64,000 bases of DNA, from assembly GCA_964490395.1 (NCBI GenBank), contig CAZBAS010000003.1, positions 8,636 through 72,635 of the forward strand, given 5' to 3'. Both the position numbers and the translations under genes were made by a program. Source of the DNA: an uncultured Candidatus Saccharibacteria bacterium (GTDB lineage Bacteria; Patescibacteriota; Doudnabacteria; UBA920). Shown in pieces: positions 28,815-64,000 of this stretch (positions are counted from its first letter, which is position 1; the number at the start of each line of letters is the position of its first letter). The notes beneath the pieces were generated by a model. The model did no database searches, was not told the DNA's origin, and was given only the letters and a program-made list of their open reading frames with translations.

Positions 28815-28973
28815 CGTCAGGCAAGTGACGCAGATGTGTTATTGATATTTGCCTATAATATACTACTGCTCGTCTGATGGAGGCTTGGCGAAGTAGGAAG
28901 CTGTAGGGCCACGGAGGCACTTTATATATTGTACGGAAAAGAAACAGTCGCCACAAGGGCGACTATTTTTGCA

Positions 28974-33134: not shown

Positions 33135-33224
<90 letters not shown>

Positions 33225-39988: not shown

Positions 39989-40050
39989 AACGCATACCAA
40001 AAAGCATATGTCGTATCTCATAGGCGCCATGCATGCACGGCGCGGCTGGT

Positions 40051-41052: not shown

Positions 41053-41098
41053 TTTTTCTGTATTAAAATATGCAATCCGAAATCATCAATCTGCATTT

Positions 41099-42007
41099 CT
41101 ACAGGTTCATTTCCCGTAGTCGTTTTATGCGGTCTGCGACTGGCGGGTGGGTGTTGAAGAGGTTTGCGAACCAGCCAACGCTGCCTTCTTGGTTTTTAAG
41201 TGGGTTTGCTATGTAGAGATGGGCTGTTGCTTTGTTCGCTGCCTCAAGTGGCTCTTTGTCTGCTGCTATTTTTTCGAGTGCGCTGGCAAGGCCTTCGGGG
41301 TAGCGGGTAAGGAGCGCGCCAGAGGCGTCTGCTAAGAATTCGCGTTGGCGGGAGACTGCAAGCTGGATGAGTGTCGCTATAATAGGGGAAAGCAGTGCGA
41401 GCACAAGGCCTACAATGGCAAATGCTTGGTTGTTTCCGCCTTCGCTATCGTTGCTACGCCTGCGACCTCCGCCCCACATGCCTATACGCACAAACCAGTC
41501 TGCCACAAGTGTGATTATGCCAACTAGTACAACTACTAGGGTCATAAAGCGAATGTCGTAGTTGCCAACGTGCGAAAGTTCATGGGCTATAACGCCCTCG
41601 AGTTCGGTTTTGTTTAAGCGAGTCAGTGCTCCCGTAGTAACGCAGACCACAGCATGTTGTGGATCGCGGCCAGTAGCAAAAGCATTTATGGCTGTATCTT
41701 CTATTATATAGATACGTGGCACGGGGAGACCTGCGGTTATGGTGAGGTTTTCTACAAGTCGGTATAAGTCGGGTGAGCCTTTTCTATCTATTTCCCGAGC
41801 ATGCGACATGGCCAGCGTAATTTTGTCGGAAAAATAATACGAAATAAATGCAGAAATACAGGAAAACACCACCGCAAAAGCTAAAATTCCAGGCTGACCA
41901 TAGGCACGGCTAAAGACATAACCAAGTGCGATGATTATAAGTAGGAACAAAAAGATAAGTAGGACGGACCTGCGTTTATTCTGACCAATGGCGGTATATG
42001 TAATCAT
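41099..42007 (-). CDS. htpX: Zinc metalloprotease HtpX (peptidase M48)
   Basis: HEXXH as AHELSHV, four TM helices, 302 aa. Confidence 0.8.
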   Translation of the reverse strand: MITYTAIGQNKRRSVLLIFLFLLIIIALGYVFSRAYGQPGILAFAVVFSCISAFISYYFSDKITLAMSHAREIDRKGSPDLYRLVENLTITAGLPVPRIYIIEDTAINAFATGRDPQHAVVCVTTGALTRLNKTELEGVIAHELSHVGNYDIRFMTLVVVLVGIITLVADWFVRIGMWGGGRRRSNDSEGGNNQAFAIVGLVLALLSPIIATLIQLAVSRQREFLADASGALLTRYPEGLASALEKIAADKEPLEAANKATAHLYIANPLKNQEGSVGWFANLFNTHPPVADRIKRLREMNL

Positions 42008-42074
42008 AAACTCGAATATCTAATATCGAAATCCGAAGTAATTTTCAAATTTAAATACTTAATACAAGAATACC

Positions 42075-42440
42075 CTAAGCTGTACTTTTTCGGATAATAG
42101 ACCCAAAAATTTTTGTTAGCTCATTTGCTTCTTGGGTTAATTTTTGCCTTTCTTGCTCACATTCTTCTGTGTCCACATAGATTAGCCTTAGCCAATAGCT
42201 GCTCTCTTTGGCTTCTTTGCGAGATATTTTAATGCGCATTAGAAAGTCTTTTTGGCTAAAACCTTCGTTTGCTTCTATGTAGTTTGCCCCAACAGAACCG
42301 GAAGAGCGTATAACTTGTTTGCCGTCTTCTATATTTGCAATAGTTTTTGGTAGTCGTTTAACAAATGTTCGTACATTTTTTGCGAACAGAAATGTCCTTT
42401 CCTCTAAATCATATTGTTTTTGATTTACAGTATGGAGCAT
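42075..42440 (-). CDS. Four-helix-bundle protein (TIGR02436 / S23-intervening-sequence protein family)
   Basis: The segment RSSGSVGANYIEANEGFSQKDFLMRIKISRKEAKESSYWLRL matches the family signature. Confidence 0.6.
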   Translation of the reverse strand: MLHTVNQKQYDLEERTFLFAKNVRTFVKRLPKTIANIEDGKQVIRSSGSVGANYIEANEGFSQKDFLMRIKISRKEAKESSYWLRLIYVDTEECEQERQKLTQEANELTKIFGSIIRKSTA

Positions 42441-42491
42441 CTATCCTTGATTCGAATTTCGTATTTTAGATATTCGAGTTTGCAGGTGAAG

Positions 42492-43040
42492 TTAAAACTT
42501 CACCTGAACAGGTTGTCCCTCTGGCCCTTTTTCATCTATATCGAAGTACTCTCGGGCTTTGAAGCCTAGGGCTCCAGCGAAGATGTTTGTAGGAACAGTT
42601 TGGATTTTCGTGTTGTAGTCTCGGACAGTGCCGTTGTAGAAGCGCCTCGAGGCCTGAATTTTGTCTTCAGTGTCGGTAAGGTCGCCTTGGAGCTGCATAA
42701 AATTCTGGTTGCTCTTAAGGTCGGGGTAGCTTTCTGAAAGCGCAAATAAGGATTTTAAAGTACCAGACAAGGCATTTTCATCTTTTAGCTTTTCTTCCAT
42801 GCTGCCAGCGTTCATAGCTGCGCTGCGGGCCTTAACCACATTCTCTAACACGGTAGATTCTTGCTTGGCGTACCCTTTTACTGTCTCTACTAAGTTAGGA
42901 ATGAGGTCGTAGCGGCGCTTGAGCTGCACTTCTATGTCGCTCCAGGCTTCATCTACGCGGTTCTTGGACTTAATGAGTGAGTTGTATATGCCAATAGCCG
43001 CAATAACTATAACGACTAAAATTACTATAAATATGATCAT
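42492..43040 (-). CDS. lemA: LemA family protein
   Basis: N-terminal TM helix followed by [36 protein letters not shown] perfect 11-bp inverted repeat (caggtgaagtt/aacttcacctg) overlaps the stop codon. Confidence 0.75.
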
Positions 43041-48963: not shown

Positions 48964-51774
48964 ATGAATTCGTTTATCTCGTCTAAGGAATATACCCGCC
49001 ACGCCTGGTCACTGCTGCTTAAGGTTGGTTTCGCAGCTTTACTTGTGGCTGGTTTCTTTTTAATGGGGCACTCCCAAACTGCTATTGCGGAAGGGTGTCC
49101 AGATAGCCAACGGGTTACCTTTGAAGGTAGTCGTTCGAGTGGCGGTGTAGGTCAGTTTTGTGAATATGGGAGCCCTCAATGTCCTTCTGGTTACCACCTG
49201 TCCAGCTGCGGGGCTACATCACTCGACGCGCCTTTGCCTTCGGGCCCAGGTACTTGTTCGGTTGAGTGTACCTGTACGTCGGATGACTATTCATGCATGG
49301 GTCCACCTCCACCCCCAGGTCCAACACCTCCGCCTCCACCGCCTTCTGGCACCCCAAGTGGAAATATTCGTGCCAATCCAAACCCCTGCAGCATTACAGG
49401 GTCTGCTTCAGCGTGCACTTCTAACATTACGTGGAATACGGATTATGTAGATTCAGTGGAAGTTATGGTTCGGAAAAACAATGGCCCCGAAGCATTGTTT
49501 AGTACAAATGCAACTTGTGGCGGCACAGCTTGCCCTGCTCCGTGGATTACCGCTAGCCCAGATTACTTTGATTTTACACTCTATGGTTTTAGCGGTGGCG
49601 TACGTACTTCTTTAGATACCGTGAGAGTTACTGGCGTGCGCCAAACTCCTCCAGATACTCAGCCTCAGGGAAATTTTGAAAATCTTACCTGCAGCCCTGC
49701 AGGTAGCGGCGGCAGCATACAAGGCTGGGCATTTGATGCAGATAGTCCAAGTATTTCTATAGATGTCCATATATATAAAGATGGTCCTGCGGGTGCGGGT
49801 GGTGTGTTTGTTGGCGTTATTCGGGCCGATGCCTATCGTCCAGACGTAAACACAGCGTTTGGTATTGCCGGTAACCATGGGTTTTATATGAGCCCATTGC
49901 CAGCAGCACTGCGTGACGGTGCGACTCACCAGGTATATTTGTATGCCATTAACACAAACGGCACTGGTCCAAATCCGCTTATAAACGGTTCACCTAAACC
50001 AGTACAGTGCCCTGTAGAGCCTACCTGTCCAAATACGCAACTCTTTGCTGTAGCCCTTGCAGATACTACCATTCGTGTAGGCGAAACTACTCTGGCGTTT
50101 GCGCCAAACGGTTGGAGTGGTGGTACTTTTACTACTTCTAACTCTGGGGTTGCCAGTGTGGCAGCGCCACAAGGCTCGTCTGCTGTTATAACCGCTAAAG
50201 CTGTGGGTGTTACCAACATAGCCGGGGAAGGATGGACCGCCTCGAACGGTGCTACTGGTTGTGGTCTTGGCTCACAGCAACTTTTTGTGGAGGCGGCAGT
50301 AGCTACCGGCTCTATTCAGGCCAATCCAAACCCTATTAAAGTATGTGTACCCGAGACAACGGGGGCTACCAATATAACTGCTAAGGCAGACGCGCCTGCA
50401 GAAGTAAGAATATACAATGCAAATGGCCAACCAGACGGCGCGGTGCTATTTACCCTGCTCGCCAATGAAACTAAAACTATTCCAACAGGAAATTGGGTAA
50501 AAAATGGTACCGAGTTTAGGCTGAGAACTACTGGTAATGGCGCAAAGCAGCTTGCTTCAGTAACCGTGGGTGTAAATGCCGAAGATTGCAAACAAGTTGA
50601 AAAGCCAATAGTAGATTTGAAAGCCGTGCCAAACCCCGTTGACTATGGTAGTTCAAGCAATCTTATTTGGCGCCAAATTGGCGGACCAGCAGATGAATGT
50701 AAAGCAATAGCAGGACCAGGGTTCAACACCAATGGCGCTGTAGAAGGAAATGACCAATCTGCTCCGTTATTTGCAGAATCAACATTTACTATTACCTGTA
50801 AAGGTCCGGGGGGTGCAGATACTAAGAGTGTTACGGTAAGCGTGCGGAGTGAAGTCGGCGGCCCCATAGATGCATGGGTAGACAACACCAACACCGCGAG
50901 CGGCTCTGGGCTTGGTGTGGCAGTAGACTGTGGGACTATTTTGGGAACGTGGACAAAACCAAAAGCGGGTGTAGATGGTTACCGCATTTATTACTACAAT
51001 ACCAACTCTGCATCGTGGATTATGCTTAAGCAGGTGCCTGCAGCTCAGGTGCAAGGATATGGAACAAGAATTGGACAAGTGTTTACACCCCCAAGTGTAA
51101 ATACACCGTATAGATACCGAGTGTATACCTATAAGGGTGCGCAGGAAGGCGTTGCAAAAAACGATGCATTCGGTTCTCCTATAGCTGCTGTGCCTTGTGA
51201 CGCAGGCGAGGGTGACTTATCTCCATCTAACAAAGACATTATTCGCATACGCAACAAAGACTTGGTATGGGATGCAAAAACAACGCAGGATCATGCCATA
51301 GAGCCAGCATTGCCTATAGTGGCGGGTGATAGCGTGAAGTTTGCTATTAACCTTGTGAACGGCGGCACCACGGCTATATCTACACCTATTAAAGTAGATG
51401 ATTTGCTTACCAACGTTGTAAAGCCTGCAGTTGCTGGCGGATTCAATTTGTCAGTAAGTTGTGAGGCAAGTGGCCAGTGTCAGCTCAAAAATTTTGCGTA
51501 TGATCCTGGTACTAACCGCATGAGTATGATAGTTGCGCCAACGCCCGGAAACAGCCTTGCACCGCTGTCTGGTGAAGTGTGGACCATAACCTTTACCACA
51601 AAAACACAAGCACCTGCTGGGCAAGTGGGAAGACCGTTCAGGTTCCAAAATGTTGCTTGCTTGAATTTGCCCGCAGGGGTGCCGTGTGAGAAAGATGTGA
51701 CCACGCCGCTTCTCATAACGCCATACATTTTAGTACTACCAGCTGGTGCGCCAACGTTTGAGGAAATACAATAA
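48964..51774 (+). CDS. Large secreted/surface protein with a Cys-rich N-terminus, a poly-Pro linker, a GWAFD-type domain and Ig-like (Big_2-like) domains
   Basis: 936 aa with an N-terminal TM/signal sequence and a PPPPPGPTPPPPPPSGTP linker. The domain GWAFDADS...RPDVNTAFGIAGNHGF...HQVYLYA is shared with the 7691 ORF. A Big_2-like segment is also present (ASVAAPQGSSAVITAKAVGVTNIAGEGW). Confidence 0.55.
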   Translation: MNSFISSKEYTRHAWSLLLKVGFAALLVAGFFLMGHSQTAIAEGCPDSQRVTFEGSRSSGGVGQFCEYGSPQCPSGYHLSSCGATSLDAPLPSGPGTCSVECTCTSDDYSCMGPPPPPGPTPPPPPPSGTPSGNIRANPNPCSITGSASACTSNITWNTDYVDSVEVMVRKNNGPEALFSTNATCGGTACPAPWITASPDYFDFTLYGFSGGVRTSLDTVRVTGVRQTPPDTQPQGNFENLTCSPAGSGGSIQGWAFDADSPSISIDVHIYKDGPAGAGGVFVGVIRADAYRPDVNTAFGIAGNHGFYMSPLPAALRDGATHQVYLYAINTNGTGPNPLINGSPKPVQCPVEPTCPNTQLFAVALADTTIRVGETTLAFAPNGWSGGTFTTSNSGVASVAAPQGSSAVITAKAVGVTNIAGEGWTASNGATGCGLGSQQLFVEAAVATGSIQANPNPIKVCVPETTGATNITAKADAPAEVRIYNANGQPDGAVLFTLLANETKTIPTGNWVKNGTEFRLRTTGNGAKQLASVTVGVNAEDCKQVEKPIVDLKAVPNPVDYGSSSNLIWRQIGGPADECKAIAGPGFNTNGAVEGNDQSAPLFAESTFTITCKGPGGADTKSVTVSVRSEVGGPIDAWVDNTNTASGSGLGVAVDCGTILGTWTKPKAGVDGYRIYYYNTNSASWIMLKQVPAAQVQGYGTRIGQVFTPPSVNTPYRYRVYTYKGAQEGVAKNDAFGSPIAAVPCDAGEGDLSPSNKDIIRIRNKDLVWDAKTTQDHAIEPALPIVAGDSVKFAINLVNGGTTAISTPIKVDDLLTNVVKPAVAGGFNLSVSCEASGQCQLKNFAYDPGTNRMSMIVAPTPGNSLAPLSGEVWTITFTTKTQAPAGQVGRPFRFQNVACLNLPAGVPCEKDVTTPLLITPYILVLPAGAPTFEEIQ

Positions 51775-51859: not shown

Positions 51860-52729
51860 ATGAACGTAAAAGTGAGTAAGAAAAAAACAATTGAAGAGAG
51901 CGATGAGGGTTTGGAAGATATTTTAGAGGACTTAGAGCAGGACGAAGCAGAAGTAACCCCGGAAGAAGCCGCGCTGGTGGCAAATCGTCGCATGGCAAGA
52001 GTGGCCTATTATAGCGCAGCGGCGAGTATTGTCACTGTAATTATATTTGCCTGGCTGGCAAGTTTCTATGTAATTAACCTCGAAACAAAGCTCAATGAGT
52101 CGAGCGCTGCTACCATGCAGCAACTCGATGGTCGCATATCTAAGCTTGAGTCTTCGGGTCTGGCAGCTCAAAAGCCAGCCGAACCAACGTTTGTGAACTT
52201 TACTGTACCGGAGAATGCTCCTCGACTGGGCTCTAGCGATGCCAAAGTAACCGTGGTGGAGTTTGCGGATTTTCAATGTCCATATTGCGGTAAGTTTCAG
52301 GAAACAGTGTATACACAGCTGAAGAAAGACTATATAGATACAGGTAAGATTTCGTTTGCATACCAAGACTTTACCTTCCTGGGTGAAGAGTCAGATGTGG
52401 CTGCGCAGGCAGCAAAGTGCGCAGGTGAGCAGGGTAAGTTCTGGGAATATCATGACTACTTGTTCTCTCACCAAAAAGGGGAGAACCAGGGCGCATTCGT
52501 GGCCAAGAACCTCAAGACGTTCGCTAAAACTTTGAAGCTTAAAACTGCAGATTTTAATACCTGTCTCGATTCTGGTAAATTTGCAAGTGCCGTAGAAGAG
52601 GAAACCGCGGGCGGCCGCGCCCTAGGCATTACTGGAACTCCAACTATTTTAGTAAACGGCAAGGTTTATGTAGGTGCTTTGCCCTATGCAACCTTTAAAC
52701 AAGCCATTGAAGAAGCTTTGGCAAAGTAA
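51860..52729 (+). CDS. dsbA: DsbA-like thiol:disulfide oxidoreductase (thioredoxin fold)
   Basis: N-terminal TM anchor and the active site FADFQCPYCGKF with a downstream DsbA-like region. Confidence 0.7.
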   Translation: MNVKVSKKKTIEESDEGLEDILEDLEQDEAEVTPEEAALVANRRMARVAYYSAAASIVTVIIFAWLASFYVINLETKLNESSAATMQQLDGRISKLESSGLAAQKPAEPTFVNFTVPENAPRLGSSDAKVTVVEFADFQCPYCGKFQETVYTQLKKDYIDTGKISFAYQDFTFLGEESDVAAQAAKCAGEQGKFWEYHDYLFSHQKGENQGAFVAKNLKTFAKTLKLKTADFNTCLDSGKFASAVEEETAGGRALGITGTPTILVNGKVYVGALPYATFKQAIEEALAK

Positions 52730-52789
52730 TTTTCCACTTAGTGCCTTTCAAAATATGGTATAGTATTAATAAAGTAATTATTTATTCTC

Positions 52790-53338
52790 ATGAAATATAC
52801 ACTTATTGCAATTGTACTTGCCGCAGTTATTGTGGCTGTAGTGGGTTATATAGTCTTAAGTGCTAAAGACAATACTCCGTCATCGCCCGCGCCTGCGAAA
52901 ACACAGCAGCAGAATTCTTCTACGACAAAGCAGTCGACCGATGCAAAGCCTGCCCCTGGTGCTGAAGCGGCCACTGAATCAAAAAATCCACTGGCTACGT
53001 TGAAGTTCCCTGGTTCTGGGGCATCCAAAGAAGACTATACAGCGTTTAATGAAAAGGTGTATGGTATGTCGGTGGCGGTAAACAAAATAACCATAACTGG
53101 CTGTGTTGCTGATCCTTTAGTTATCCGTGTTCCCAAAGCCACTCAGTTCACAATTCACAATAACGACGCAACTGAGCACAAGCTTTCTAACTTGGGTAGC
53201 ACTACTCCCGTAGTCTTGCCAGCAAAGGGAGATGCGCAGGTCACCCTTAAAGATATAGGGGTGTATGGGTATGCGTGTGACGCTACTTCACAACGAAGTG
53301 TAACTGCGGGCATTGTGGCGGTTATGGATGCAAAATAA
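52790..53338 (+). CDS. Membrane-anchored cupredoxin-like domain protein with a non-canonical ligand set
   Basis: ITITGCVADPLVIRVPKATQFTIHNNDATEH...GVYGYACDATSQRSVTAGIVAV follows the cupredoxin_1 pattern (G.Y.f.C....G.i.V), but the second His and the Met ligands are absent. Confidence 0.4.
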   Translation: MKYTLIAIVLAAVIVAVVGYIVLSAKDNTPSSPAPAKTQQQNSSTTKQSTDAKPAPGAEAATESKNPLATLKFPGSGASKEDYTAFNEKVYGMSVAVNKITITGCVADPLVIRVPKATQFTIHNNDATEHKLSNLGSTTPVVLPAKGDAQVTLKDIGVYGYACDATSQRSVTAGIVAVMDAK

Positions 53339-53404
53339 CGTACGTTGTTTATAGATTTTACATAAATACTGGCCGCGTGCCAGTATTTTTAGTATCATAG
53401 AAGT

Positions 53405-54703
53405 ATGAGACATTTACCTGTGGCGACGCAAAAGCGCATTGTATATATCCTAGGTGGTCTGCTTTCTATTGCGATCGTAGTTCTGATTGTAATGCAGCGG
53501 CATGCAGTGCTGTCTAGGCAAGGCGCTACCGTTACGGGTACTGATATGGCACAAGCTGCACCGGATTATAGTGCAGATATTGATGAAGTGGCTGCACATG
53601 AAAGAGATTGGAATTTTGAACAAACGCAGACATTTTTTAAGTCTCTTGCCGAGCGAAAAGGCGGAGAGTATGCGTATGAGATTTTAAAAAGAGCACCGCT
53701 TCCACCCAATATGGATTTGCATTTACTTGGGCACGTGGTGGGGGATGTGTTGTATAAACAGGAGGGTGTGGCAGGCATGCGAGTGTGTACTCAAGATTTT
53801 CGAAATGCCTGTTCGCACGCAATTGTAGTAGGTTTGTTTGGCGACCAGGGGGAGGCGGCTTTGCCTCAAATAGTAGAAGCATGCAGGAAAGCTCCTGGCG
53901 GAACAGGTGCGTATACTATGTGCTTTCATGGTCTAGGGCATGGTATCTTTGCCGCCATGGCCTACAATGTGCCAAATACAGTTGCTATGTGCGCGAAGAC
54001 AGGCAGTGCGCCTGGATCACAAAGCCGGGAAGCAGTTGAATGTGTAGGGGGGATGATCATGGAACTGATGGGCGGAGGTGATCACGATAAGGAGCTGTGG
54101 GCGAAAAAGCGCGCTTTGTACGTAAGTGATAGTCAGCCGCTTCGTCCGTGTATTGACTCAATAATCCCCAAGGAGGCGAAGTATATGTGCTATGTATATC
54201 TTACTCCCCACCTATTTCAGGCCGCTGGGGCAGACTTGGGTCATCCAACTCCAGATAATTTTAAAAAAGCTTTTACCTTTTGTGATGTTCTTCCTGCGGC
54301 AGACGTTTCGGATCGCGATGCGTGTTTTGGAGGTTTTGGCAAGGAATTTACCGTACTTGCTCAGGACCGTGATATACGACAGAATTCACTCCTTCGTATC
54401 CGTGATGAACAATTAAAATTAGTGTATTCGTGGTGTAAACTGACTCCAAATAAAAACGGGAGTGCCGCGTGTATTGTAAGCGCAATGAATTCGTTGTATT
54501 GGGGGGCTGAGAATCCTGCTTCCTTGCCCATACGCTTTTGCAAACAGATTGATGACTCGTATCTAGCGGGATCTTGCTATACTGCATTTTTTTCTGCGGT
54601 TCGCCAATATGCTCGGACGCCTCAAGATCGAGCCGCCGTCTGTAATCAGATGCCTGATGCGTGGCAAGAGCCGTGTAAAAATGAACTCATTTCTCGTTCC
54701 TAA
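53405..54703 (+). CDS. Cys/His-rich membrane-anchored extracytoplasmic protein, paralog family member A1
   Basis: N-terminal TM helix. Motifs HLLGHVVG, CTQDFRNACSHAIVVGLFG, MCFHGLGHGIF and ECVGGMIMEL are shared with 57856 and, more distantly, with 54706 and 58966. Confidence 0.55.
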   Translation: MRHLPVATQKRIVYILGGLLSIAIVVLIVMQRHAVLSRQGATVTGTDMAQAAPDYSADIDEVAAHERDWNFEQTQTFFKSLAERKGGEYAYEILKRAPLPPNMDLHLLGHVVGDVLYKQEGVAGMRVCTQDFRNACSHAIVVGLFGDQGEAALPQIVEACRKAPGGTGAYTMCFHGLGHGIFAAMAYNVPNTVAMCAKTGSAPGSQSREAVECVGGMIMELMGGGDHDKELWAKKRALYVSDSQPLRPCIDSIIPKEAKYMCYVYLTPHLFQAAGADLGHPTPDNFKKAFTFCDVLPAADVSDRDACFGGFGKEFTVLAQDRDIRQNSLLRIRDEQLKLVYSWCKLTPNKNGSAACIVSAMNSLYWGAENPASLPIRFCKQIDDSYLAGSCYTAFFSAVRQYARTPQDRAAVCNQMPDAWQEPCKNELISRS

Positions 54704-54705
54704 TT

Positions 54706-55980
54706 ATGAAACTTCATCCTCGTAAACATATTTCACAGTTATTGCGAAGCCCGTTACAAACGGGCTTGCTCGTGCTTGCGGTGGGAATGGGGGTAATCGC
54801 TCTTTTATACGCACGAGGTGTGCGGGTCCATACCGCAAACGATGTTTTCAACAGAAACGTTGTTAGTGGCACCATGCGGGAGGAAAAACCCAATCTTAAA
54901 ACCTATGCTGATACGTTAGTTGCGCAATGTGCTCATAGCGAGTATCACCCAACGTGCTACGACGACGCTATTCCTAAGCTAATGGACACCCTTACGATGG
55001 AACAGGCTTTTCAAGTGACAGCGATGGTGCAAGACCGAGATAGGAGCTATGCGTATTGCCATGTGTTAGGTCATAAGCTATCAGCAATTGAGGTTGCGAA
55101 GGATCCTAGTAAATGGAAAGAAGTCATTACTCGTTCTCCTCGGGGCATTTGCTCAAACGGAGCAATACACGGTGCGTTCCAGGAGCGGTTCAGGCGCGAG
55201 TCTTTGACCGATCAAGAAGTGGTTGACTTAAAACCAGAACTCCAAGATGTGTGTGAACCTCGCGGGGCTTGGAAGCCAACCGGTTTAGAGCAAGGCAGTT
55301 GTTACCATGCCCTTGGGCATTTAACCATGTATATTACCGATGGTCATATTGAAAAGGCTGTTGCTCTCTGTGGCGATTTGGCGTTAAAAAAGAACGGCCA
55401 AGCAGACTGGCGACAATTGTGTTATGATGGCTCATTTATGCAAATATTCCAACCACTTGAGCCGGATGATTTTGCTTTGGTGAAAGGTAAACAACCTACT
55501 AAAGAGCAGCTGCCCAGTTTCTGCAGTAAATTTTCAGGACTCATGCGCGGCCCTTGCTGGAATGAAGCGTGGCCGCTTTCGCGTGATCAGATTCTAACTG
55601 CCAAAGGGTTGGATCGGTATTGTGGAAGTCAGTTTTTGTCAGTCAAAGCGGACATTGATCGCTGTTATACTGCATTGTTCTACGTAGTTACGGCACAATT
55701 GGGTTTGGACGTTTCTAAGGTTGGTGGGTTTTGTACCGGCCTTACAGATGCGGTGCATCGCGGTGCTTGTTTTGCCAATGGTGCGGGCCGTATGATAGAA
55801 ACGGATTATAGAAATATCCCTACCGCGTTAGATCTGTGCGCTCACTCTCAAGACGCGCAAGAGGCTTGTTACGGGGAATTGTTGAAAGATGTAAGTTATG
55901 ATTTTCCTCCAGGCTCTCCTGACGCTGCTAAACTGTGCGCTGGTATGCCTGAGCCGTGGAAAACAAAATGCGTTCGATAG
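54706..55980 (+). CDS. Cys/His-rich membrane-anchored extracytoplasmic protein, paralog family member B1
   Basis: Starts 3 nt after A1. Motifs CHVLGHKLS, ICSNGAIHGAFQERF, SCYHALGHLTMYI and LCYDGSFMQIF align with those of 58966. Confidence 0.55.
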   Translation: MKLHPRKHISQLLRSPLQTGLLVLAVGMGVIALLYARGVRVHTANDVFNRNVVSGTMREEKPNLKTYADTLVAQCAHSEYHPTCYDDAIPKLMDTLTMEQAFQVTAMVQDRDRSYAYCHVLGHKLSAIEVAKDPSKWKEVITRSPRGICSNGAIHGAFQERFRRESLTDQEVVDLKPELQDVCEPRGAWKPTGLEQGSCYHALGHLTMYITDGHIEKAVALCGDLALKKNGQADWRQLCYDGSFMQIFQPLEPDDFALVKGKQPTKEQLPSFCSKFSGLMRGPCWNEAWPLSRDQILTAKGLDRYCGSQFLSVKADIDRCYTALFYVVTAQLGLDVSKVGGFCTGLTDAVHRGACFANGAGRMIETDYRNIPTALDLCAHSQDAQEACYGELLKDVSYDFPPGSPDAAKLCAGMPEPWKTKCVR

Positions 55981-56053
55981 AGTTTTAAAATGAGGAATAA
56001 GGCAATATATGCGGCCCTGCACGCGTAGTGCTCTTATATCCTTAGCGAAGTGG

Positions 56054-57685
56054 TTAATTTAGTGAAGCAGCGAAAACCGTAATAGGAGTGGTGTCGTATA
56101 CGCTCGTGATGTAACTGTAATTTGGGTGTTGCTGCGCAAATGGCTCTAGGCAATTTTTTCGTGCTGAATCTTGGCCGCGACACACTATGTACCAGACTAC
56201 GGGGGCGCTAGTAGATATTCTCGTGTAACCACTCGGTGTTGCGGTGGTGATGGAAGTGAGTTGCATACCCAACTTTTTTTCAAGGGGTGCCCATAGGTAT
56301 GCGGTATGTTCGCTGGTAAAAGTGTCATTGTCATAGCCAAAGACGGCAACATCAAAAAAGTAGTAATCCTTTAAGCCCCTTTGCGTTTTTTGACCCTCTA
56401 TATTTTCTATAACGCTTTGTAGTATATTGTTTTTTTGTTCAATGGATGCTTTTACTAAAGCGGGCTGGGAAAGGCAGAATAGCGTAGCGTGGGTGGCTAG
56501 CAATATACTTAACATGCAAAATATCCAACGCGCTGATTGAGCGATTAGCGCGCTCATGAGGAGGGTTAGGAAAATTATTTCCAGGGGCAGAAGGGGTAAA
56601 AAGTAATATGACCATACATTTTGTAAAAAAGATGCGGCAATTATGAAAAGCAAAAAAGCGAGCGCGATGATGCCAAGTACCTTCCGTTGTACGCGCGCGC
56701 TTTTATATACGCCATATGCCGTGAGCAGTGTGGTGAGTATTATTTGAAATATATAGGAAAACCTGGTATTCCCCAGGCCGAGTAGCTGCTTTGTACTCGA
56801 TGATATTTGCCGAGCAAGTTGCAAAAAGGTGTCCTGTAATCCGTGCTCAGTAGGGTTGCTAAACCCAGCAGCGAAGTTAGAGCGGTGAGGGTGTACTACT
56901 AAGCCCAAAAGCAGCGGGCCATATAATACCAGTAGCATACTCGTTACTAGGCCCAGAACTATTACCCTATCTCTCGTTGAAAACTGCTTCAATTTCCAAG
57001 CGTATACTGTGTACCAAATAGGAAAAAGTAAGAAGAATGAGTTGTGCACAGCTCCGGCAAGCAGGGTAAGAACCAGGCTCCATATGAGTGGAGTCCGTTT
57101 GTTTGTGAAAAGTGCTCGTGCCCCGCTTGTGTAGGCAAATACGGCCATTGAGAGCATGAAATATGGTTGCCACACTGATTGGGAATATTCTGTAATATTC
57201 GGTAGATAAAAAAGAAATAAGCTGGCTGCAAATAGTCCTGCCCACTTATCTGTGAGCTGTTTTACTACATAATACAACGATATGCCTGCGGCTATTTGGC
57301 TTGCTATGTTTACTAAAACGAGCATGAGCGGGCTGTCCCACAACCATAAGCATGGTGCAAGAAGCCAGTAGTATATAGGGCTATTAAAAAAACCGGCTAA
57401 GGCGCCGTTCCATGGCCCGGCCAATGGAATTTCCCAGCCCAAGGCTGCGTGCCGGGCTATAAGATAGTCTCGCAGTGGCTCTGCTTGGGTGTGGTCCAAG
57501 ATGGGGTAATGAAGCTGAAAAAGGCGAATGAACACCGCAGAGCCAATCAGTATGAAAAAGAGGGCCGTTACAGGGGTGGGGTGCAGTGCTTGGAGTGCTA
57601 GATCTTTAAAAAAAGACTCTAAGGTTTTTATTCTATTTCTAAGCCACTGCTTTACGGCATTAAGTGGTGAAGGTGTTGGGTGCAT
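56054..57685 (-). CDS. Polytopic membrane protein, probable GT-C fold glycosyltransferase (ArnT/PMT-like)
   Basis: 543 aa with at least 11 TM helices, a first periplasmic loop carrying acidic residues, and a soluble C-terminal domain. The architecture is typical of GT-C enzymes, but no diagnostic motif was verified. Confidence 0.35.
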   Translation of the reverse strand: MHPTPSPLNAVKQWLRNRIKTLESFFKDLALQALHPTPVTALFFILIGSAVFIRLFQLHYPILDHTQAEPLRDYLIARHAALGWEIPLAGPWNGALAGFFNSPIYYWLLAPCLWLWDSPLMLVLVNIASQIAAGISLYYVVKQLTDKWAGLFAASLFLFYLPNITEYSQSVWQPYFMLSMAVFAYTSGARALFTNKRTPLIWSLVLTLLAGAVHNSFFLLFPIWYTVYAWKLKQFSTRDRVIVLGLVTSMLLVLYGPLLLGLVVHPHRSNFAAGFSNPTEHGLQDTFLQLARQISSSTKQLLGLGNTRFSYIFQIILTTLLTAYGVYKSARVQRKVLGIIALAFLLFIIAASFLQNVWSYYFLPLLPLEIIFLTLLMSALIAQSARWIFCMLSILLATHATLFCLSQPALVKASIEQKNNILQSVIENIEGQKTQRGLKDYYFFDVAVFGYDNDTFTSEHTAYLWAPLEKKLGMQLTSITTATPSGYTRISTSAPVVWYIVCRGQDSARKNCLEPFAQQHPNYSYITSVYDTTPITVFAASLN

Positions 57686-57855
57686 ATACTGCTAAAAGTT
57701 GGTAATCTATGTTCGTAATTGCTAAGCAAGGGTTGTATCCCGGTGTAGTTAGTGTCGATACCTAATCCGGGGCAATGGTATGAAGTGTACGTAGGTATTA
57801 TACCGTAAGCGCATCTCTTCTGTGGTAAAATAGCTATGTTGGCAAGCGACAGAAT

Positions 57856-58962
57856 ATGAACCAAAAAAATAAAATATACATACTATTTGCAGGCGTACTT
57901 CTGTTGGCAGTGATTGCTGCGGTATATTTTGTAGTGGTAAATAACCGGGGTGTAGAACCTCTGGTAACGGTACCGGCTAGGGAAGATGTAAGTATAACTA
58001 CGCAAGAGGGCGTTGCTGCACTGCGTACTTCATGGGCAGATTTGATAGGTAAACAGGGGGGAAAGGCTGCATATGAAGTGTTTTCTAAGCAAACTGCGCA
58101 GTTCCCGCTTTCGGATCAGCACCTCTCTGCTCATATTTTTGGCCAACAATTATATAAAAAAGAAGGCCTTCCTGGTGTAGTAGTCTGTAATTCAGATTTT
58201 GGCTTCGGATGCTTTCATGGTTTTTTTGGCGCAGCGGTTGCCGAGGGTGGGCTTGCGCAAGTTGCGTCACTAGATAAGGTGTGTGTTACAGCATTTGGCT
58301 CCCTGGGCACTGGCTGTCAGCACGGCATTGGTCATGGAATTATGGAGTACTTTGGCTCGGGTCATTTGGAAGATGCCCTGGCGGCATGTAAAGATACAAC
58401 TCAAAAAAGCTTTTTGTTTGGCTGTACTTCTGGAGTGTTTATGGAATACAACGCTCCTACCATACTATCTGATACTGCCGCCCAAACAGAAGCGCGTCCT
58501 TTGGATAAAAAGCACCCTCTTCTGCCTTGCACAGATTTGCCCAATAGGGGCTTTAGACTTTCGTGTCTATATGAACTTGCTCAGTTTTGGCAGCGGACCA
58601 ATCCATTTCCCGTCATGGGTGAATGGTGCGGGACTCTTACCGTTCCTGAGGAAAAGTCTGTGTGCATGTATGGAGTGGCAAATATGATTGCCGTGCGCAC
58701 CAACTTCGACGTTTCTGCTGCCGTGCAAGAATGTAAAAATTTTTCTACCACTGCCTTGGTTAAGGCCTGTGCTGCTGGGGCTGCCTGGTCGTTCTATGCT
58801 CAGCCAGGTAAAAAAAGTATGGTCCCTGCAGTCTGTAGTGAAGATGCGTCTTGTTTGCGAGAGGCAGTCTTAATTTGTAATTTTATGCCCAATCAGGCGG
58901 ACAAAGCAGCGTGTTTAGTCTCGAATGATTTAACTCCACCTAACAGAGAAGATAAACACTAA
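57856..58962 (+). CDS. Cys/His-rich membrane-anchored extracytoplasmic protein, paralog family member A2
   Basis: HLSAHIFG, CNSDFGFGCFHGFFG, GCQHGIGHGIM and GCTSGVFMEY align closely with the motifs of 53405. Confidence 0.55.
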   Translation: MNQKNKIYILFAGVLLLAVIAAVYFVVVNNRGVEPLVTVPAREDVSITTQEGVAALRTSWADLIGKQGGKAAYEVFSKQTAQFPLSDQHLSAHIFGQQLYKKEGLPGVVVCNSDFGFGCFHGFFGAAVAEGGLAQVASLDKVCVTAFGSLGTGCQHGIGHGIMEYFGSGHLEDALAACKDTTQKSFLFGCTSGVFMEYNAPTILSDTAAQTEARPLDKKHPLLPCTDLPNRGFRLSCLYELAQFWQRTNPFPVMGEWCGTLTVPEEKSVCMYGVANMIAVRTNFDVSAAVQECKNFSTTALVKACAAGAAWSFYAQPGKKSMVPAVCSEDASCLREAVLICNFMPNQADKAACLVSNDLTPPNREDKH

Positions 58963-58965
58963 CCT

Positions 58966-60423
58966 ATGTCTTCCAAAGTATTCAGTTTCTGTGTTCGGTT
59001 TTTAGTTCCATTTTGCATTGTGCTCGGTTTGGGGCTTTGGGGTGTGTGGCACTGGCATGTCTTACACCTGTCTCAATCGCCACGGGTTACCGTTGTGGAG
59101 CTCACTGACTCGGGCTTCTTGCCTTCCCATATTTCCGTGGACGTGGGACAAACAGTTCGTTTTGTGAATAAGTCCTCCCATGACTTTTGGCCTGCATCGG
59201 ACTTGCATCCGACTCACACTCTGTATCCTGAATTTGATGCGCATGCACCTATCGGAACGAATGGTGAGTGGGCTTTTGTGTTCACGCGAGTTGGGGAGTG
59301 GCACTATCACGATCATCTTTCGCCGAGTATGCGAGGGGTTGTAGTGGTGGGAGGGCTTTCTGGTAGTTCGGAAACTAAAGAGTGCTCTGTGGTGGCCGAC
59401 AAATCGGAAAAGCAGGCCTGTTGGAACCGAGTCATTATTTCGCTGCTTAACACAAAAGGGGTCGCAGCGGCGTTGCAATATATAAGTATGGCGTATACTC
59501 AAGATTCTGTTTTTGCAACAGACTGTCATGACTATCTCCATAAAGTGGGCGAAGCCGTGTATGATCAGCATATTCCACTTACGAGTGAGCTGGGTCCCGA
59601 GACGAATTTTTGCGGGTATGGATTTTTCCACGGGTACATGGAGCGTCTTCTAACGGTCTCAGGGGACATAACAGAGGCATCGGTGTTTTGCGAGAAAGTA
59701 AGCACTGTGGCTGCTCAGGTTACAGCGGATGCATGCTTGCATGGATTTGGCCACGGACTGTTTGCATCTGCTGTAGAAAAAGGTGGCGGCAACCTTCTTC
59801 CAGAATCTGTAGTCGCCACAGCCTTGGTGGGTTGTGAAAAATTGGGCGGGGGACAAACAGAGAAGGCTGCGCGTTGTTCCTCAGGGGTGTATATGGAGTT
59901 GGGGACGGACGAAGGCGCAGGACAATACAATTTACACATCAATGCTACGGATCCGCTCGGTATATGTATGATACAACCCACTATATACAAGGCTGACTGT
60001 TATCGCCAGATGCAGGTCGTAATCTTGAATATCGCGAATGGTAATATACGAAAAGGCCTTGAATACTCCGAACGCATGCCTGATGCAGATTTTGCGGCAA
60101 CCAGTGTGGAAACCTACATGGGTGGTGCGACCAAGTTGGGTCAGGATGGGGTAAAAGATGCAACAGCAAGTTGCAGGAATATAGTGGCAAAGTTCCAGCC
60201 AGCGTGTATAAGTGGTATCGCCCTGGCGCATATGCTCCGCGGGGCACCTGGTAAGGAGGCTGTGCAGGCTCTGGAGTACTGCAATGGCGACCTGTTAACA
60301 AAAACAGAAGGTATGGCATGCCGGTCGTATGTCATCCGATACGCCCGGAATGCCTACAATCCCTCAGTGCTGCAAACTATCTGCGCTTCTTTGCCTGCCA
60401 GTGAGCAGTCGGAATGTAAATAA
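58966..60423 (+). CDS. Cys/His-rich paralog family member B2 with an N-terminal cupredoxin-like domain fusion
   Basis: Starts 4 nt after A2. The N-terminal domain VVELTDSGFLPSHISVDVGQTVRFVNKSSHDF...GEWHYHDHLSPSMRGVVVV follows the cupredoxin pattern with His in place of Cys. The CHDYLHKVG, FCGYGFFHGYMERLL, ACLHGFGHGLF and RCSSGVYMELG motifs follow. Confidence 0.55.
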   Translation: MSSKVFSFCVRFLVPFCIVLGLGLWGVWHWHVLHLSQSPRVTVVELTDSGFLPSHISVDVGQTVRFVNKSSHDFWPASDLHPTHTLYPEFDAHAPIGTNGEWAFVFTRVGEWHYHDHLSPSMRGVVVVGGLSGSSETKECSVVADKSEKQACWNRVIISLLNTKGVAAALQYISMAYTQDSVFATDCHDYLHKVGEAVYDQHIPLTSELGPETNFCGYGFFHGYMERLLTVSGDITEASVFCEKVSTVAAQVTADACLHGFGHGLFASAVEKGGGNLLPESVVATALVGCEKLGGGQTEKAARCSSGVYMELGTDEGAGQYNLHINATDPLGICMIQPTIYKADCYRQMQVVILNIANGNIRKGLEYSERMPDADFAATSVETYMGGATKLGQDGVKDATASCRNIVAKFQPACISGIALAHMLRGAPGKEAVQALEYCNGDLLTKTEGMACRSYVIRYARNAYNPSVLQTICASLPASEQSECK

Positions 60424-60465
60424 ATTCCTGCTATACTATACGTAAATCCGAGTTTTACCCAAGCA

Positions 60466-61017
60466 ATGCTCATAAGTCTCATAGAGATGAACTTTTTTAA
60501 ATATTTTATTCTATTTATAGTTCCCTTTTTACTTTTTACCCCAGTGTATGCGCACGTTGCGGGTTCTTCGTGGGAGCAAGTCTATGGTGATTATAAAGTA
60601 GATGTAGGGTATGATCCTACAACTTTTACTGTGGGTGAACCGCAGCGATTAGATTTTAATGTAGTCAAAGAGCAGGGTGGGGAAGATGTACCTTTTGCAG
60701 ATGTATGGGTGCGTATAGCCCAGGGAAATAAAACAGTGTTCGCGAGCGGTATACACAAACCAAGCCTCGGTAAAACAGGTATGACCTTTACGTTTCCTGA
60801 GGCAGGGGAGTACTTGCTTTCTGCGCGGTTTGAAAACTCCAGTGGTACTGTGGTAGATTCAAGTTTTCCTGTAACCGTACAGGCAGTGCAGCCAGACCCT
60901 GCTACAACCAAATCTACAAAAAATAAAACAGTCCTTTTGTGGGCTGGCTGGTCTGTGGCGTTTGTAAGTACTGGCGTTGCCGTGTACGCATTCGCGCGTA
61001 AGAAAAAAGCAATATAA
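60466..61017 (+). CDS. YcnI-like (DUF1775-type) putative copper-binding protein with N-terminal His after the signal peptide and a C-terminal TM anchor
   Basis: The signal peptide ends ...PVYA|HVAGSSWEQ, so His would be the first mature residue with a nearby Trp. It is followed by a beta-rich domain of about 120 aa and a C-terminal TM helix (LWAGWSVAFVSTGVAVYAF). Confidence 0.4.
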   Translation: MLISLIEMNFFKYFILFIVPFLLFTPVYAHVAGSSWEQVYGDYKVDVGYDPTTFTVGEPQRLDFNVVKEQGGEDVPFADVWVRIAQGNKTVFASGIHKPSLGKTGMTFTFPEAGEYLLSARFENSSGTVVDSSFPVTVQAVQPDPATTKSTKNKTVLLWAGWSVAFVSTGVAVYAFARKKKAI

Positions 61018-61021
61018 CACT

Positions 61022-61576
61022 ATGAACCAAAAAACAAAATATATACTAAGCATAATTGTAGGTTTTGTTTTAGTATTTGCCATTGGCATTTCGGCAATAA
61101 AGATTTTTCGCGCAAAACGCAGCACAGCACCCGAGGCGGACGTCTCTGCTATAACAAATGTGCAGCCGGTTCAGTCAAAAGTATTAACACCCGTCCAAAA
61201 ACAAGTGCAAGAGCTTCGCGCTGAGCAATTTAGTTTGCCCGCAGAGGTTCGATCTGCCGATTTAGTATTTGCAGATTTGCCACCTGTACTTCAAACTGCA
61301 TTCAAGAAGCACGCAGCAAGTGCAACGGTGTACGGAGTTACGTATGCTCAAGATAAAATTGGTTTTCGCTTAGAACAAGACGTTGCCATGCCCATGGATA
61401 AGCTCGCGCAGCAGTGGCAAGACCAGCTCATGGCCTCTAAGCAGTTCTTAAGCTCTAAAAACGATCCAACCGAAATTGTCTATGCTGCAAAGATAGAAAA
61501 CTACAAAGTGCTTTTAACATTTTCACAATTGACGAGCAGCTCCACGGGGGAGAGTATACGCGCAATAGAAGAGTAG
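61022..61576 (+). CDS. Hypothetical membrane-anchored protein
   Basis: The start was moved to the internal Met (MNQKTKYILSIIVGF) to avoid a 41-nt overlap with the upstream gene. One TM helix. Confidence 0.4.
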   Translation: MNQKTKYILSIIVGFVLVFAIGISAIKIFRAKRSTAPEADVSAITNVQPVQSKVLTPVQKQVQELRAEQFSLPAEVRSADLVFADLPPVLQTAFKKHAASATVYGVTYAQDKIGFRLEQDVAMPMDKLAQQWQDQLMASKQFLSSKNDPTEIVYAAKIENYKVLLTFSQLTSSSTGESIRAIEE

Positions 61577-61583
61577 TATATTT

Positions 61584-62432
61584 ATGAATATTAACAGACG
61601 CGAATTTATCAAAACAGCTGCAGCCGCTACAGTACCTTTGCTTGCAGATACAACGGTTGGCCGTGCAGCCGAACTGCTTGATGCTGATAGAGAGAATAAG
61701 AAAGTTGAATATAAAGAACCTGCACCGGAAGTTGATCGGCAACGCCAACAAGCAGCTTGTTATGTGCGTGCCCTTAAATATGAGCCTGGAAAAGGATTGC
61801 AGTCGGAGCAGGGAAGTGGGACCTTGCTAGGGTCTGGTTCAGATTTGTACATTGTAACTGCTTACCATGTTGCAAAGGCTTTTGGAAAGGAAGGCGCATC
61901 GGTATATATCCCTGGCGCTCGTGCGTGCAATGCGCGTATTGTGTACTCAGACAATGAATTAGACCATGCCCTCATGAAGATTAGTTTTTCTGGGTCTGCG
62001 GAGGACGCTGAAAAAAGTTACAAAGAAATGGCTGAGCGAAGTTACGGCTTGAGTGATAGCTCTCCGACGGCGGAGGCACACGAAGAAATTCCTGCTGGTC
62101 CATTTTTTATCTATAATGAAGGCGCTATTTCAGGGCAACAGGGTGGAGCTGTAGATACTCGTAGGGTGGCCATTAATCCAAAAAAAGTTCGACAAGTTCC
62201 TTATTCATTGGAAAATGGTGCGCCCAGGGTGCAGACTCTTTTCTTTGAGGGTGTAACTTTTAATCATGGCCAATCTGGTAGTTTGGTATACGATGCTGAC
62301 CGGCCTGTAGGCATAGCGTTTGCAAACGTCAAAGTAGATGGGAAAAGTGGCGTTCTTCTGGTCCCCTGGGGAAAGGTGAAAGATTCCATACGGCAATATG
62401 AGCCCCTGGCGAAAGACATTGCAAAAAAATAG
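61584..62432 (+). CDS. Tat-signal trypsin-like (S1 family) serine protease
   Basis: Tat motif RREFIKTAAAATVPLLA, a His-containing TAYHV segment (GSGTLLGSGSDLYIVTAYHVAKAF) and a Ser-containing GQSGS segment (NHGQSGSLVYDA). Confidence 0.6.
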   Translation: MNINRREFIKTAAAATVPLLADTTVGRAAELLDADRENKKVEYKEPAPEVDRQRQQAACYVRALKYEPGKGLQSEQGSGTLLGSGSDLYIVTAYHVAKAFGKEGASVYIPGARACNARIVYSDNELDHALMKISFSGSAEDAEKSYKEMAERSYGLSDSSPTAEAHEEIPAGPFFIYNEGAISGQQGGAVDTRRVAINPKKVRQVPYSLENGAPRVQTLFFEGVTFNHGQSGSLVYDADRPVGIAFANVKVDGKSGVLLVPWGKVKDSIRQYEPLAKDIAKK

Positions 62433-63732: not shown

Positions 63733-64000
63733 ATGAAATTTAAACTATTCTGTCTTGTTGGGCTGGGTTTGCTTGGGCTGGTAATGGTTAGTCAAAACTC
63801 TACACCTGATAATCCGTTCCCTTCGTCCTCAGTGCAGGCCGCACCAGTTATTGCAGCTCGTTCGGCCGCTTGCTATTTGCGCAAGATATCTGGGGGTAGC
63901 GGGCAAAACCAATTTCAGCAGGGAAGTGGTACTCTGTTGCAGATTGGGGGATTGCCAGGGACGTATGTTTTAACTGCTTATCACGTCACCCATGGTATGG
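63733..64000 (+). CDS. Second trypsin-like serine protease paralog (5' part; runs off the window)
   Basis: Translation from the ATG at 63733: signal peptide MKFKLFCLVGLGLLGLVMV ... GSGTLLQIGGLPGTYVLTAYHVTHG. This is homologous to the N-terminus of the 61584 protein. Confidence 0.5.
   Translation, partial: MKFKLFCLVGLGLLGLVMVSQNSTPDNPFPSSSVQAAPVIAARSAACYLRKISGGSGQNQFQQGSGTLLQIGGLPGTYVLTAYHVTHGM

Follow-up and report, generated by a model that had tools for sequence, protein, structure and literature searches.

We analyzed a gene cluster at positions 51860-62432 of a 64,000-nucleotide stretch of DNA (referred to as the window here; assembly GCA_964490395.1, contig CAZBAS010000003.1, positions 8,636 to 72,635 of the forward strand) from an uncultured bacterium labeled Candidatus Saccharibacteria, which GTDB places among the Doudnabacteria of the Patescibacteriota. 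The interval holds ten substantial open reading frames (ORFs), nine on the plus strand and one on the minus strand, all recovered at the coordinates listed in a first-pass annotation of the same DNA. At the center of the cluster are four plus-strand genes for Cys- and His-rich proteins, called A1 (53405-54703, 432 amino acids), B1 (54706-55980, 424 amino acids), A2 (57856-58962, 368 amino acids), and B2 (58966-60423, 485 amino acids). Only 2 nucleotides separate A1 from B1 and 3 separate A2 from B2; the tight coupling described in the first-pass annotation therefore holds, although at spacings other than the 3 to 4 nucleotides given there. Between the two pairs, the gene for a polytopic GT-C-like glycosyltransferase on the opposite strand divides the array into two transcription units. 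The remaining genes of the interval encode a DsbA-like thiol:disulfide oxidoreductase, a small cupredoxin-like protein (Cup), a protein with an invariant histidine behind its signal peptide (Ycn), a small N-terminally anchored protein (X9), and a trypsin-like protease.

The four Cys/His-rich proteins are paralogs, as had been proposed: BLASTP connects all six pairs (A1-A2, E value of 2e-18; A1-B2, 7e-10; A2-B1, 4e-7; A2-B2, 6e-7; A1-B1, 2e-6; B1-B2, 0.004), and a family hidden Markov model (HMM) of 334 members detects the four window proteins with E values from 1e-110 to 1e-66 (4e-94 for B1 and 7e-81 for A2) and nothing else in the window. Their division into two subtypes, A and B, does not withstand this comparison, since the match between B1 and B2 is weaker than that of any other pair and B2 is nearer to A1 than to B1. 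The family comprises four subfamilies (A1, A2, B1, and B2), with a mutual identity of 15 to 25%. Each protein has a single N-terminal hydrophobic anchor, in agreement with the extracytoplasmic location assigned earlier, and periodic motifs are indeed shared by all four, namely, two HxxxH motifs (53720-53734 and 53927-53941 in A1, 55060-55074 and 55306-55320 in B1, 58120-58134 and 58321-58335 in A2, and 59527-59541 and 59740-59754 in B2) and one CxxGxxM[E/Q] motif (CxxGxxME at 54041-54064 in A1, 58423-58446 in A2, and 59875-59898 in B2; CxxGxxMQ at 55420-55443 in B1). All four window proteins thus combine the features by which the family is recognized, i.e., an N-terminal transmembrane (TM) anchor, two HxxxH motifs, core Cys pairs, and arrangement in same-strand paralog arrays.

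No model of Pfam-A or NCBIfam matches the four paralogs, and the Pfam models of Sel1, TPR, and HEAT match neither these four at E values up to 1 nor 42 A-type members at E values up to 0.1. A subthreshold match to the Pfam family SOR (E value of 0.003, in 5 of 42 members) was rejected as spurious; it covers positions 112 to 227 of the SOR profile, which we take to lie away from the iron-binding residues of SOR. Profiles built from 4 and from 42 sequences of the family retrieved nothing meaningful from the PDB sequences (malonyl-CoA decarboxylase with an E value of 1.4 and MYLIP with an E value of 0.006). The family is nevertheless large. A search with A1 against an index of 5.8 billion proteins returned 1,158 homologues, all unnamed or “hypothetical,” whose named sources are mostly Patescibacteria/candidate phyla radiation (CPR) bins, and a HMMER search with a mixed-subfamily profile against 1.84 billion cluster representatives (clusters at 50% identity) yielded 14,242 matches at E values up to 1e-3, with 2,619 at E values up to 1e-30. 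A scan in which each GTDB species was represented by a single genome confirmed relatives in 150 of them, and the 79 of those loci that we examined all appear to be from Patescibacteria, including Parcubacteria/Paceibacterota, Kaiser-, Yanofsky-, Nomura-, Sung-, Doudna-, Davies-, Colwell-, and Adlerbacteria, and Microgenomates; the labels “uncultured Saccharibacteria” and “uncultured Gammaproteobacteria” among the relatives look like automated labels of metagenome-assembled genomes. Among the genomes sampled here, the operon appears to be restricted to Patescibacteria. In the literature searched on Patescibacteria together with cupredoxins, DsbA, or cysteine-rich proteins, the family is not described, and Patescibacteria are absent from a “signal-strapping” survey of N-terminal-His proteins. 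The first-pass annotation had recognized neither the family nor the gene arrangement from any described system, and no description of the paralog family, the His-rich cupredoxin variant described below, the Ycn family, or the operon architecture turned up in Pfam, NCBIfam, PDB sequences and folds, or the literature searched.

An AlphaFold2 model of A1, built from the 42-sequence alignment, is all-helical (mean predicted local distance difference test [pLDDT] of 92.7, predicted template modeling score [pTM] of 0.85), with a TM helix at residues 6 to 38, a short disordered linker, and then about 20 helices. The alpha/alpha-repeat fold that had been suggested from the motif periodicity is therefore right, and we refer to the paralogs as solenoids. 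A Foldseek search of the PDB with this model gave a best E value of 0.016 and TM-scores of about 0.2, to HEAT/ARM or importin-type and designed repeats, and matched no enzyme and no metalloprotein, so that the modeled fold offers no specific functional clue. The solenoids share at most 15% identity with HEAT/ARM and designed helical repeats; the HEAT/ARM proteins known to date reside in the cytosol and have no disulfides. In their Cys pattern, the solenoids come structurally closest to the Helicobacter cysteine-rich proteins (Hcp), which are secreted helical-repeat proteins with Sel1-like repeats whose helix pairs are stapled by disulfides. Unlike Hcp, however, the solenoids match no Sel1 or other repeat-family Pfam model, are not built from one regular short repeat, and carry a TM anchor as well as an invariant set of four histidines.

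These four histidines are the signature of the family: among the 334 full-length members from all four subfamilies, H106 is kept in 100% and H110, H175, and H179 in 98% each. They make up the two HxxxH motifs, which sit on helices 105-127 and 167-184 with one helix between them. Also universal in this set are G178, G216, and the cysteines at positions 160, 173, 196, 213, 262, 344, 356, 413, and 424. A smaller mixed alignment of 37 sequences has H106, H110, H138, H175, and H179 invariant, and all 16 Cys of A1 are conserved in the A-type alignment of 42 sequences, one of them at 41 of 42. The number of Cys outside the anchor is even in 314 of the 334 members (94%), and the variable Cys columns co-vary as pairs (phi of 1.0 for 128/249 and for 131/140, 0.99 for 293/307, and 0.98 for 379/391). 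The gene that opens the locus (51860-52729, plus strand) was correctly recognized as that of a DsbA: its product is a membrane-anchored thiol:disulfide oxidoreductase (TM residues 48 to 76) that matches Thioredoxin_4 (E value of 1.2e-39, 136.5 bits) and DSBA (E value of 3.3e-19, 69.9 bits) and contains a CPYC motif at residues 140 to 143 (nucleotides 52277-52288). Because the cysteines occur in even numbers, come and go pairwise, and belong to proteins encoded next to this DsbA, the simplest reading is that they form disulfides, of which 7 to 10 would brace each solenoid. A pairing between sequential neighbors (128-136, 160-173, etc.) was considered and set aside, being partly contradicted by the co-variation of 128 with 249.

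If the cysteines are assigned to disulfides, the four histidines, with Met and Glu/Gln, are left as a candidate ligand site. The positions of the helices make it plausible that H110, H175, H179, and M219/E220 cluster together, with H138 far from them. The earlier proposal that clusters of Cys, His, and Met bind metal is thus to be narrowed: the conserved His cluster plausibly binds a metal, with copper a plausible candidate, whereas cysteines that come in even numbers and change in pairs are poor candidates for ligands.

A second concentration of histidines is found in B2, where an additional domain (approximately 59062-59370) lies between the TM anchor and the solenoid. A profile of 34 such modules matches amicyanin with an E value of 9.3e-8 over 94 of 105 residues, and solenoid-fused relatives reach 46 to 68 bits with Cupredoxin_1, above its gathering cutoff. 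The cupredoxin assigned to B2 is therefore homologous to amicyanin, but the redox role suggested along with it does not hold. The B2 domain and its stand-alone versions resemble amicyanin and plastocyanin in that they align along the full length of amicyanin; they differ in lacking the His-Cys-His-Met set of type 1 copper sites. In the alignment with amicyanin, His53 is replaced by Phe and Cys92 by Asp or Asn, and His95 and Met98 by nonconserved residues. The invariant residues are instead W75, P76, S78, H81, P82, H84, D91, W102, G110, W112, H115, and H117, with no invariant Cys. These residues define a motif, WPAS[DN]xHPxH ... [FY]H[DN]H (WPASDLHPTH at 59188-59217 and YHDH at 59305-59316 in B2), in which HPxH and HxH, with Trp and Asp, replace the type 1 ligands. 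As judged from this conservation, the B2 domain has a cupredoxin fold with a new candidate site of four invariant histidines (His4). Unlike amicyanin, it is membrane-anchored or solenoid-fused, since it occurs in two forms, either joined to a solenoid or as an anchored ORF of about 130 amino acids, often directly upstream of Ycn. A database protein identical to B2 (P0121) is annotated 18 residues shorter (467 amino acids), which cuts into the TM anchor; a start at the ATG 3 nucleotides past the stop codon of A2 (58966) seems preferable.

The separate small cupredoxin-like protein near the start of the locus, Cup (52790-53338, plus strand; 182 amino acids with an N-terminal anchor), is borne out more weakly. 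Cupredoxin_1 matches it with an E value of 4.7e-4, below the gathering cutoff, and a profile of 26 Cup sequences finds the C-terminal cupredoxin domain of NirK (8e-4), PDB entry 4hcf (“Cupredoxin 1,” 1.2e-3), and plastocyanin (3e-3). Its invariant residues are C105, P109, N124, G157, C163, and G174, while H130 is mostly kept but replaced in several members. Cup has no complete type 1 copper site, the C-terminal His/Met loop after the Cys being absent.

These observations bear on the idea, put forward in the first-pass annotation, of a Cys/His/Met redox system at the cell surface, in which electrons would pass between the paralogs and genuine blue-copper cupredoxins. In its favor, B2 does have a cupredoxin fold, and the paralogs do contain conserved Cys, His, and Met residues. 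With the type 1 ligands replaced in B2, however, a blue-copper electron transfer role is unsupported, and Cup lacks the His/Met loop; the Cys of the solenoids are even in number and co-vary as pairs; and clustering of all ORFs from 83 related loci (see below) revealed no cytochromes, quinone-linked proteins, or other redox partners. We therefore regard this reading as highly improbable and largely excluded.

The third histidine-bearing protein, Ycn (60466-61017, plus strand; 183 amino acids), consists of a signal peptide, a beta-sandwich (approximately 60565-60882), and a C-terminal TM anchor. Its residue H30 (60553-60555), preceded by Ala29 in at least 90% of the sequences, is invariant in 28 syntenic and 31 database homologues, suggesting that the signal peptide is cleaved between Ala and His and that H30 forms the mature N terminus. 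In the database alignment, S35, D63, W81, and R83 are also invariant, and E37 is kept in at least 90%. H30 is the sole invariant His in both alignments, leaving no second His for a bis-His brace. An AlphaFold2 model of Ycn (pLDDT of 90.3) shows eight strands in a beta-sandwich followed by the C-terminal TM helix. The best compact structural matches of this model are copper-binding beta-sandwiches, although generic Ig-like and macroglobulin domains score equally high: Helicobacter pylori CrdA of the CopC/PcoC family (9ll2; 11.7, with a root mean square deviation of 2.5 Å over 102 of 108 residues), Tp34 (cobalt-bound entry 3pjl; 9.6), HftA (8t7m, iron and copper bound; 9.6), FtrA-P19 (7r4z, iron and copper bound; 9.6), and PmoD (6cpd; 8.7).

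The description of Ycn as “YcnI-like with an N-terminal His” is thus right about the histidine, which is invariant, but not about family membership, since Ycn matches neither the DUF1775 family model nor the solved YcnI chains. YcnI of Bacillus subtilis, a mono-histidine-brace Cu(II) protein of the DUF1775 family, has the same architecture, with a signal peptide, an N-terminal His, a beta-sandwich, and a C-terminal TM helix, and its Cu(II) site is completed by Glu50 and Trp137 (PMC8424229). E37, D63, and W81 of Ycn recall these two residues and are candidate site residues. CrdA has been assigned to the CopC family, although it contains no His at all (PMC9182242). From the CopC/PcoC proteins, CrdA included, Ycn differs by an identity of only 9%, the lack of a CopC Pfam match, the lack of a second invariant His, and the presence of a C-terminal membrane anchor. 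Ycn therefore appears to have a YcnI/CopC-type layout while being a member of neither family.

The structural matches to P19-type proteins raise the alternative of a ferrous-iron acquisition system like FtrABCD or EfeUOB, in which Ycn and the altered cupredoxin would oxidize and bind iron and the solenoids would hand it on. The cupredoxin domains of EfeO and FtrB belong to Cupredoxin_1, the same Pfam family as that matched here. Generic Ig-like domains nonetheless match at least as well as the P19-type proteins, which rank below CrdA of the CopC family, and, to our knowledge, P19 proteins do not use an N-terminal His. No Ftr1/EfeU-type permease, polyferredoxin, DyP peroxidase, or other component of such systems is found in the 83 loci, and the solenoid family has no counterpart in FtrABCD, EfeUOB, or P19. 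We consider an iron system of this kind very unlikely.

To see how the genes are arranged elsewhere, each ORF in 83 related loci was classed by its best match to the window proteins. A1 is found in all 83 loci, B1 in 67, B2 in 61, and A2 in 58, followed by Ycn (29 to 30), Cup (25, usually directly upstream of A1), GT-C (9), DsbA (8, all with CP[FY]C), X9 (2), and the trypsin-like protease (0). Synteny in related genomes, which had been open at first, is hence clear, with the operon present in all of these loci. A locus contains a median of 4 and a maximum of 11 paralogs within 10 kb on either side, with 294 of 305 neighboring paralog pairs on one strand and 91% of the gaps no longer than 20 nucleotides. 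The dominant order is Cup (when present), A1, A2, B1, further copies of B2, B1, or A2, a cupredoxin-only ORF in some loci, and Ycn; the transition from A1 to A2 occurs 49 times, that from A2 to B1 37 times, that from A1 to B1 12 times, and that from A2 to B2 11 times. Since there are four old subfamilies whose usual order across the 83 loci is A1-A2-B1, the interpretation of the window as a duplicated two-gene A-B module is overturned. The window contains one copy of each of the four old subfamilies in a minority order, with the GT-C gene inserted. Its closest relatives, L004 and L021, read DsbA-Cup-A1-B1-B2-...-Ycn-X9 and lack both GT-C and A2. The array therefore recurs, while GT-C and DsbA, which had been expected to accompany it, are only occasional neighbors, and GT-C is not a core part.

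Some relatives are giant proteins with 4 to 7 tandem solenoid modules (P0191 with 3,580 amino acids, P0193 with 2,143 amino acids, P0209, P0213, and P0216), of which P0191 also contains a GH3 glycosidase domain (E value of 6e-61) and C-terminal LRV/HEAT repeats; these may be genuine fusions or may result from read-through in gene calling. That the paralogs occur in same-strand arrays of up to 11 genes with short gaps, and in natural fusions of up to 7 modules, indicates that they probably work together.

Three types of protein at this locus, namely, the solenoids, the His4 cupredoxin, and Ycn, concentrate invariant histidines outside the cytoplasm, and two of them have folds like those of copper proteins. 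The most economical reading is therefore a surface metal-handling assembly for capture, relay, or buffering, with copper as the leading candidate; we favor it tentatively, at somewhat less than an even chance. According to this reading, the core would consist of single-pass tethered, extracytoplasmic alpha-solenoids from the four subfamilies, braced by 7 to 10 disulfides that the membrane-anchored DsbA, sometimes encoded next door, would make. Each paralog would offer a site made of two HxxxH motifs on two helices, usually with Met and Glu/Gln nearby. Two further histidine modules would be associated with these: an amicyanin-derived cupredoxin that has lost its blue-copper ligands and gained four histidines, present as part of B2 or as an anchored protein of its own, and a CopC/YcnI-like beta-sandwich with a mature N-terminal His and a C-terminal anchor. 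On the outside of the membrane, the proteins would most likely assemble into a hetero-oligomer that captures a transition-metal ion, with copper as the prime candidate, and then passes it on or buffers it on its His sites; the putative order of relay would run from the N-terminal-His protein via the His4 cupredoxin to the His4 solenoids. Under this best-supported reading, the operon would work by analogy with known sets of extracytoplasmic metallochaperones (CopC/YcnI/PCuAC together with cupredoxin-like proteins), while being built from new parts.

Several observations weigh against a metal-handling role. The residues around the putative site are not all kept: among the 334 members, most B2 members have Asn in place of M219, which is conserved in A1, A2, and B1, and B1 has Asn in place of H138, which is conserved in A1, A2, and B2, so that only the four histidines are universal. 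Clustering of all ORFs in the 83 loci revealed no recurrent metal transporter, P-type ATPase, permease, or metalloregulator, and a scan with Rfam found neither a riboswitch nor any other element near the operon. We know of few copper enzymes in Patescibacteria, which makes a need for up to 11 paralogous copper handlers puzzling. Finally, the commonest extra neighbors of the arrays are a fibre-like repetitive protein, upstream of A1 and on the same strand in 31 of 31 matches, and a 238-amino-acid partner, upstream of A1 in 34 of 38 matches and always on the strand of A1.

The last of these points suggests that the solenoids could form a structural or adhesive surface scaffold of protein-protein interaction modules that anchor, assemble, or display upstream-encoded fibre-like proteins or contact the host cell, with the histidines being structural (e.g., binding zinc) or interfacial. 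In the window and in L004, the upstream position held elsewhere by the fibre-like protein is occupied by a surface protein of 936 to 1,073 amino acids, type IV pilus, GT2, and GT-C genes lie near the array in some loci, and both the expansion of paralogs and the giant multimodule fusions would suit a modular surface structure. On the other hand, conservation of four histidines at 98 to 100% among subfamilies that are only 15 to 25% identical fits a catalytic or ligand site better than an interface, the partner modules concentrate histidines as well, and a protein with 7 to 10 disulfides hardly needs structural zinc. A scaffold is thus possible, if somewhat unlikely.

The conservation pattern just mentioned would also be compatible with an extracytoplasmic metalloenzyme in which the four histidines are catalytic, as in a mono- or dimetal hydrolase or oxygenase whose targets would be envelope glycans, lipids, or molecules from the host, with paralogs differing in substrate. 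The invariant His cluster has conserved Glu/Gln and Met nearby, GT-C and GT2 genes are occasional neighbors, one giant relative is fused to a GH3 domain, deoxyhypusine hydroxylase provides a precedent for a HEAT-repeat di-iron enzyme, and these bacteria live by scavenging from their hosts. We nevertheless consider an enzyme unlikely, because the Pfam, PDB sequence, and Foldseek searches gave no similarity to any enzyme in fold or sequence, the GH3 fusion is a single case and a possible gene-calling artifact, the SOR matches are subthreshold and limited to a few members, and enzymes rarely need 4 to 11 cotranscribed paralogs, some of them fused.

A bolder version of the metal-handling assembly would be a new multisubunit extracellular metalloprotein machine, seen so far only in Patescibacteria, in which the His4 solenoids are wired to a Cys-free cupredoxin and an N-terminal-His brace protein and carry out chemistry at the symbiont-host interface, such as a copper-dependent oxidative attack on the host envelope or piracy of metal from it, rather than simple homeostasis; we consider this decidedly unlikely. 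A substantial part of bacterial diversity belongs to the Patescibacteria, tiny symbionts that are attached to other cells and whose genomes abound in genes of no known function, and the solenoid family is among the larger unannotated ones, with a cell-surface location, a conserved operon, and a simple four-His signature. If it binds metal, the disulfide-stapled solenoid would be a new scaffold for metal sites, the B2 domain would be a clear case of a blue-copper fold with an exchanged ligand set, and the system would reveal a way for organisms with minimal genomes to acquire or detoxify metal extracellularly. Should it prove to be a structural scaffold for fibres, it would have a direct bearing on host attachment by these cells. 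On either reading, the family merits an entry in Pfam (e.g., as a DUF) and an experimental structure, and its ectodomains are small enough for biochemistry.

The remaining neighbors are less closely tied to the array. The opposite-strand gene within the window array (56054-57685, minus strand) encodes a polytopic protein of 543 amino acids and was rightly assigned as GT-C-like, since it is homologous to PMT_2/GT-C proteins (E value of 5e-24 to a PMT_2-annotated protein of L001). Seven of nine aligned homologues match PF13231 (best E value of 9.5e-8), although the window copy itself has no Pfam match, and a nine-sequence profile found no match among the PDB sequences. The protein has about 8 or more hydrophobic segments, and Asp72, invariant in the nine sequences and located after the first segment, would lie in the first extracytoplasmic loop. 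The longest ORF of X9 (60977-61576, plus strand), which has homologues only in L004 and L021 and belongs to no Pfam family, overlaps the end of Ycn by 41 nucleotides; translation probably starts at the ATG at 61022, which follows the stop codon of Ycn by 4 nucleotides and immediately precedes the hydrophobic segment.

The interval closes with a Trypsin_2 serine protease (61584-62432, plus strand; E value of 5.4e-7, 30.9 bits versus a cutoff of 27.6) whose TAT_signal match of 17.6 bits stays below the cutoff of 22.7. Two Tat-signal proteases had been assigned to the system. One is present, with a weak Tat match; a partial ORF at the end of the window (63733-64000, plus strand), 48% identical to it over 44 amino acids, is presumably the second and lies outside the interval; and, with no such protease in any of the 83 loci, neither appears to be part of the system. 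On the other side, the large secreted or anchored surface protein of 936 amino acids upstream of DsbA (48964-51774, plus strand) shares 57% identity over 812 amino acids with the protein that immediately precedes DsbA in L004, showing that synteny extends beyond the interval. Its sequence includes an N-terminal module rich in Cys, a linker of poly-proline, and numerous Ig-like segments, with only a weak fn3 match in Pfam.

The fibre-like protein of other loci (about 600 amino acids, rich in Thr, Ser, Gly, and Ala) shares with its 238-amino-acid partner a motif like IDHPLDPxNKxLxHSxVESPD; the two are seen in loci from L005 to L083 (examples are L035:3-1874 and L044:3387-4103), both lack a Pfam match, and neither is present in the window. 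The recurrent neighbor clusters c1, c2, c4, c10, c11, and c20 likewise have no Pfam match. In about seven loci, a 160-amino-acid protein and then a 318-amino-acid polytopic membrane protein follow downstream of the array (L003:13570-15005 and L045:14767-15249), also without a Pfam match.

A promoter and terminator scan gave no more than expected by chance. The only Rfam matches in the window, where no rRNA genes or riboswitches were detected, are three tRNA genes (28742-28815 and 29645-29730 on the minus strand and 33135-33221 on the plus strand). Housekeeping or stress genes lie farther upstream on the minus strand (36634-43040), encoding a ClpB-type AAA+ chaperone (36634-39186), an M48 peptidase (41099-42007), and LemA (42492-43040); a LemA gene is also located upstream of the array in L004.

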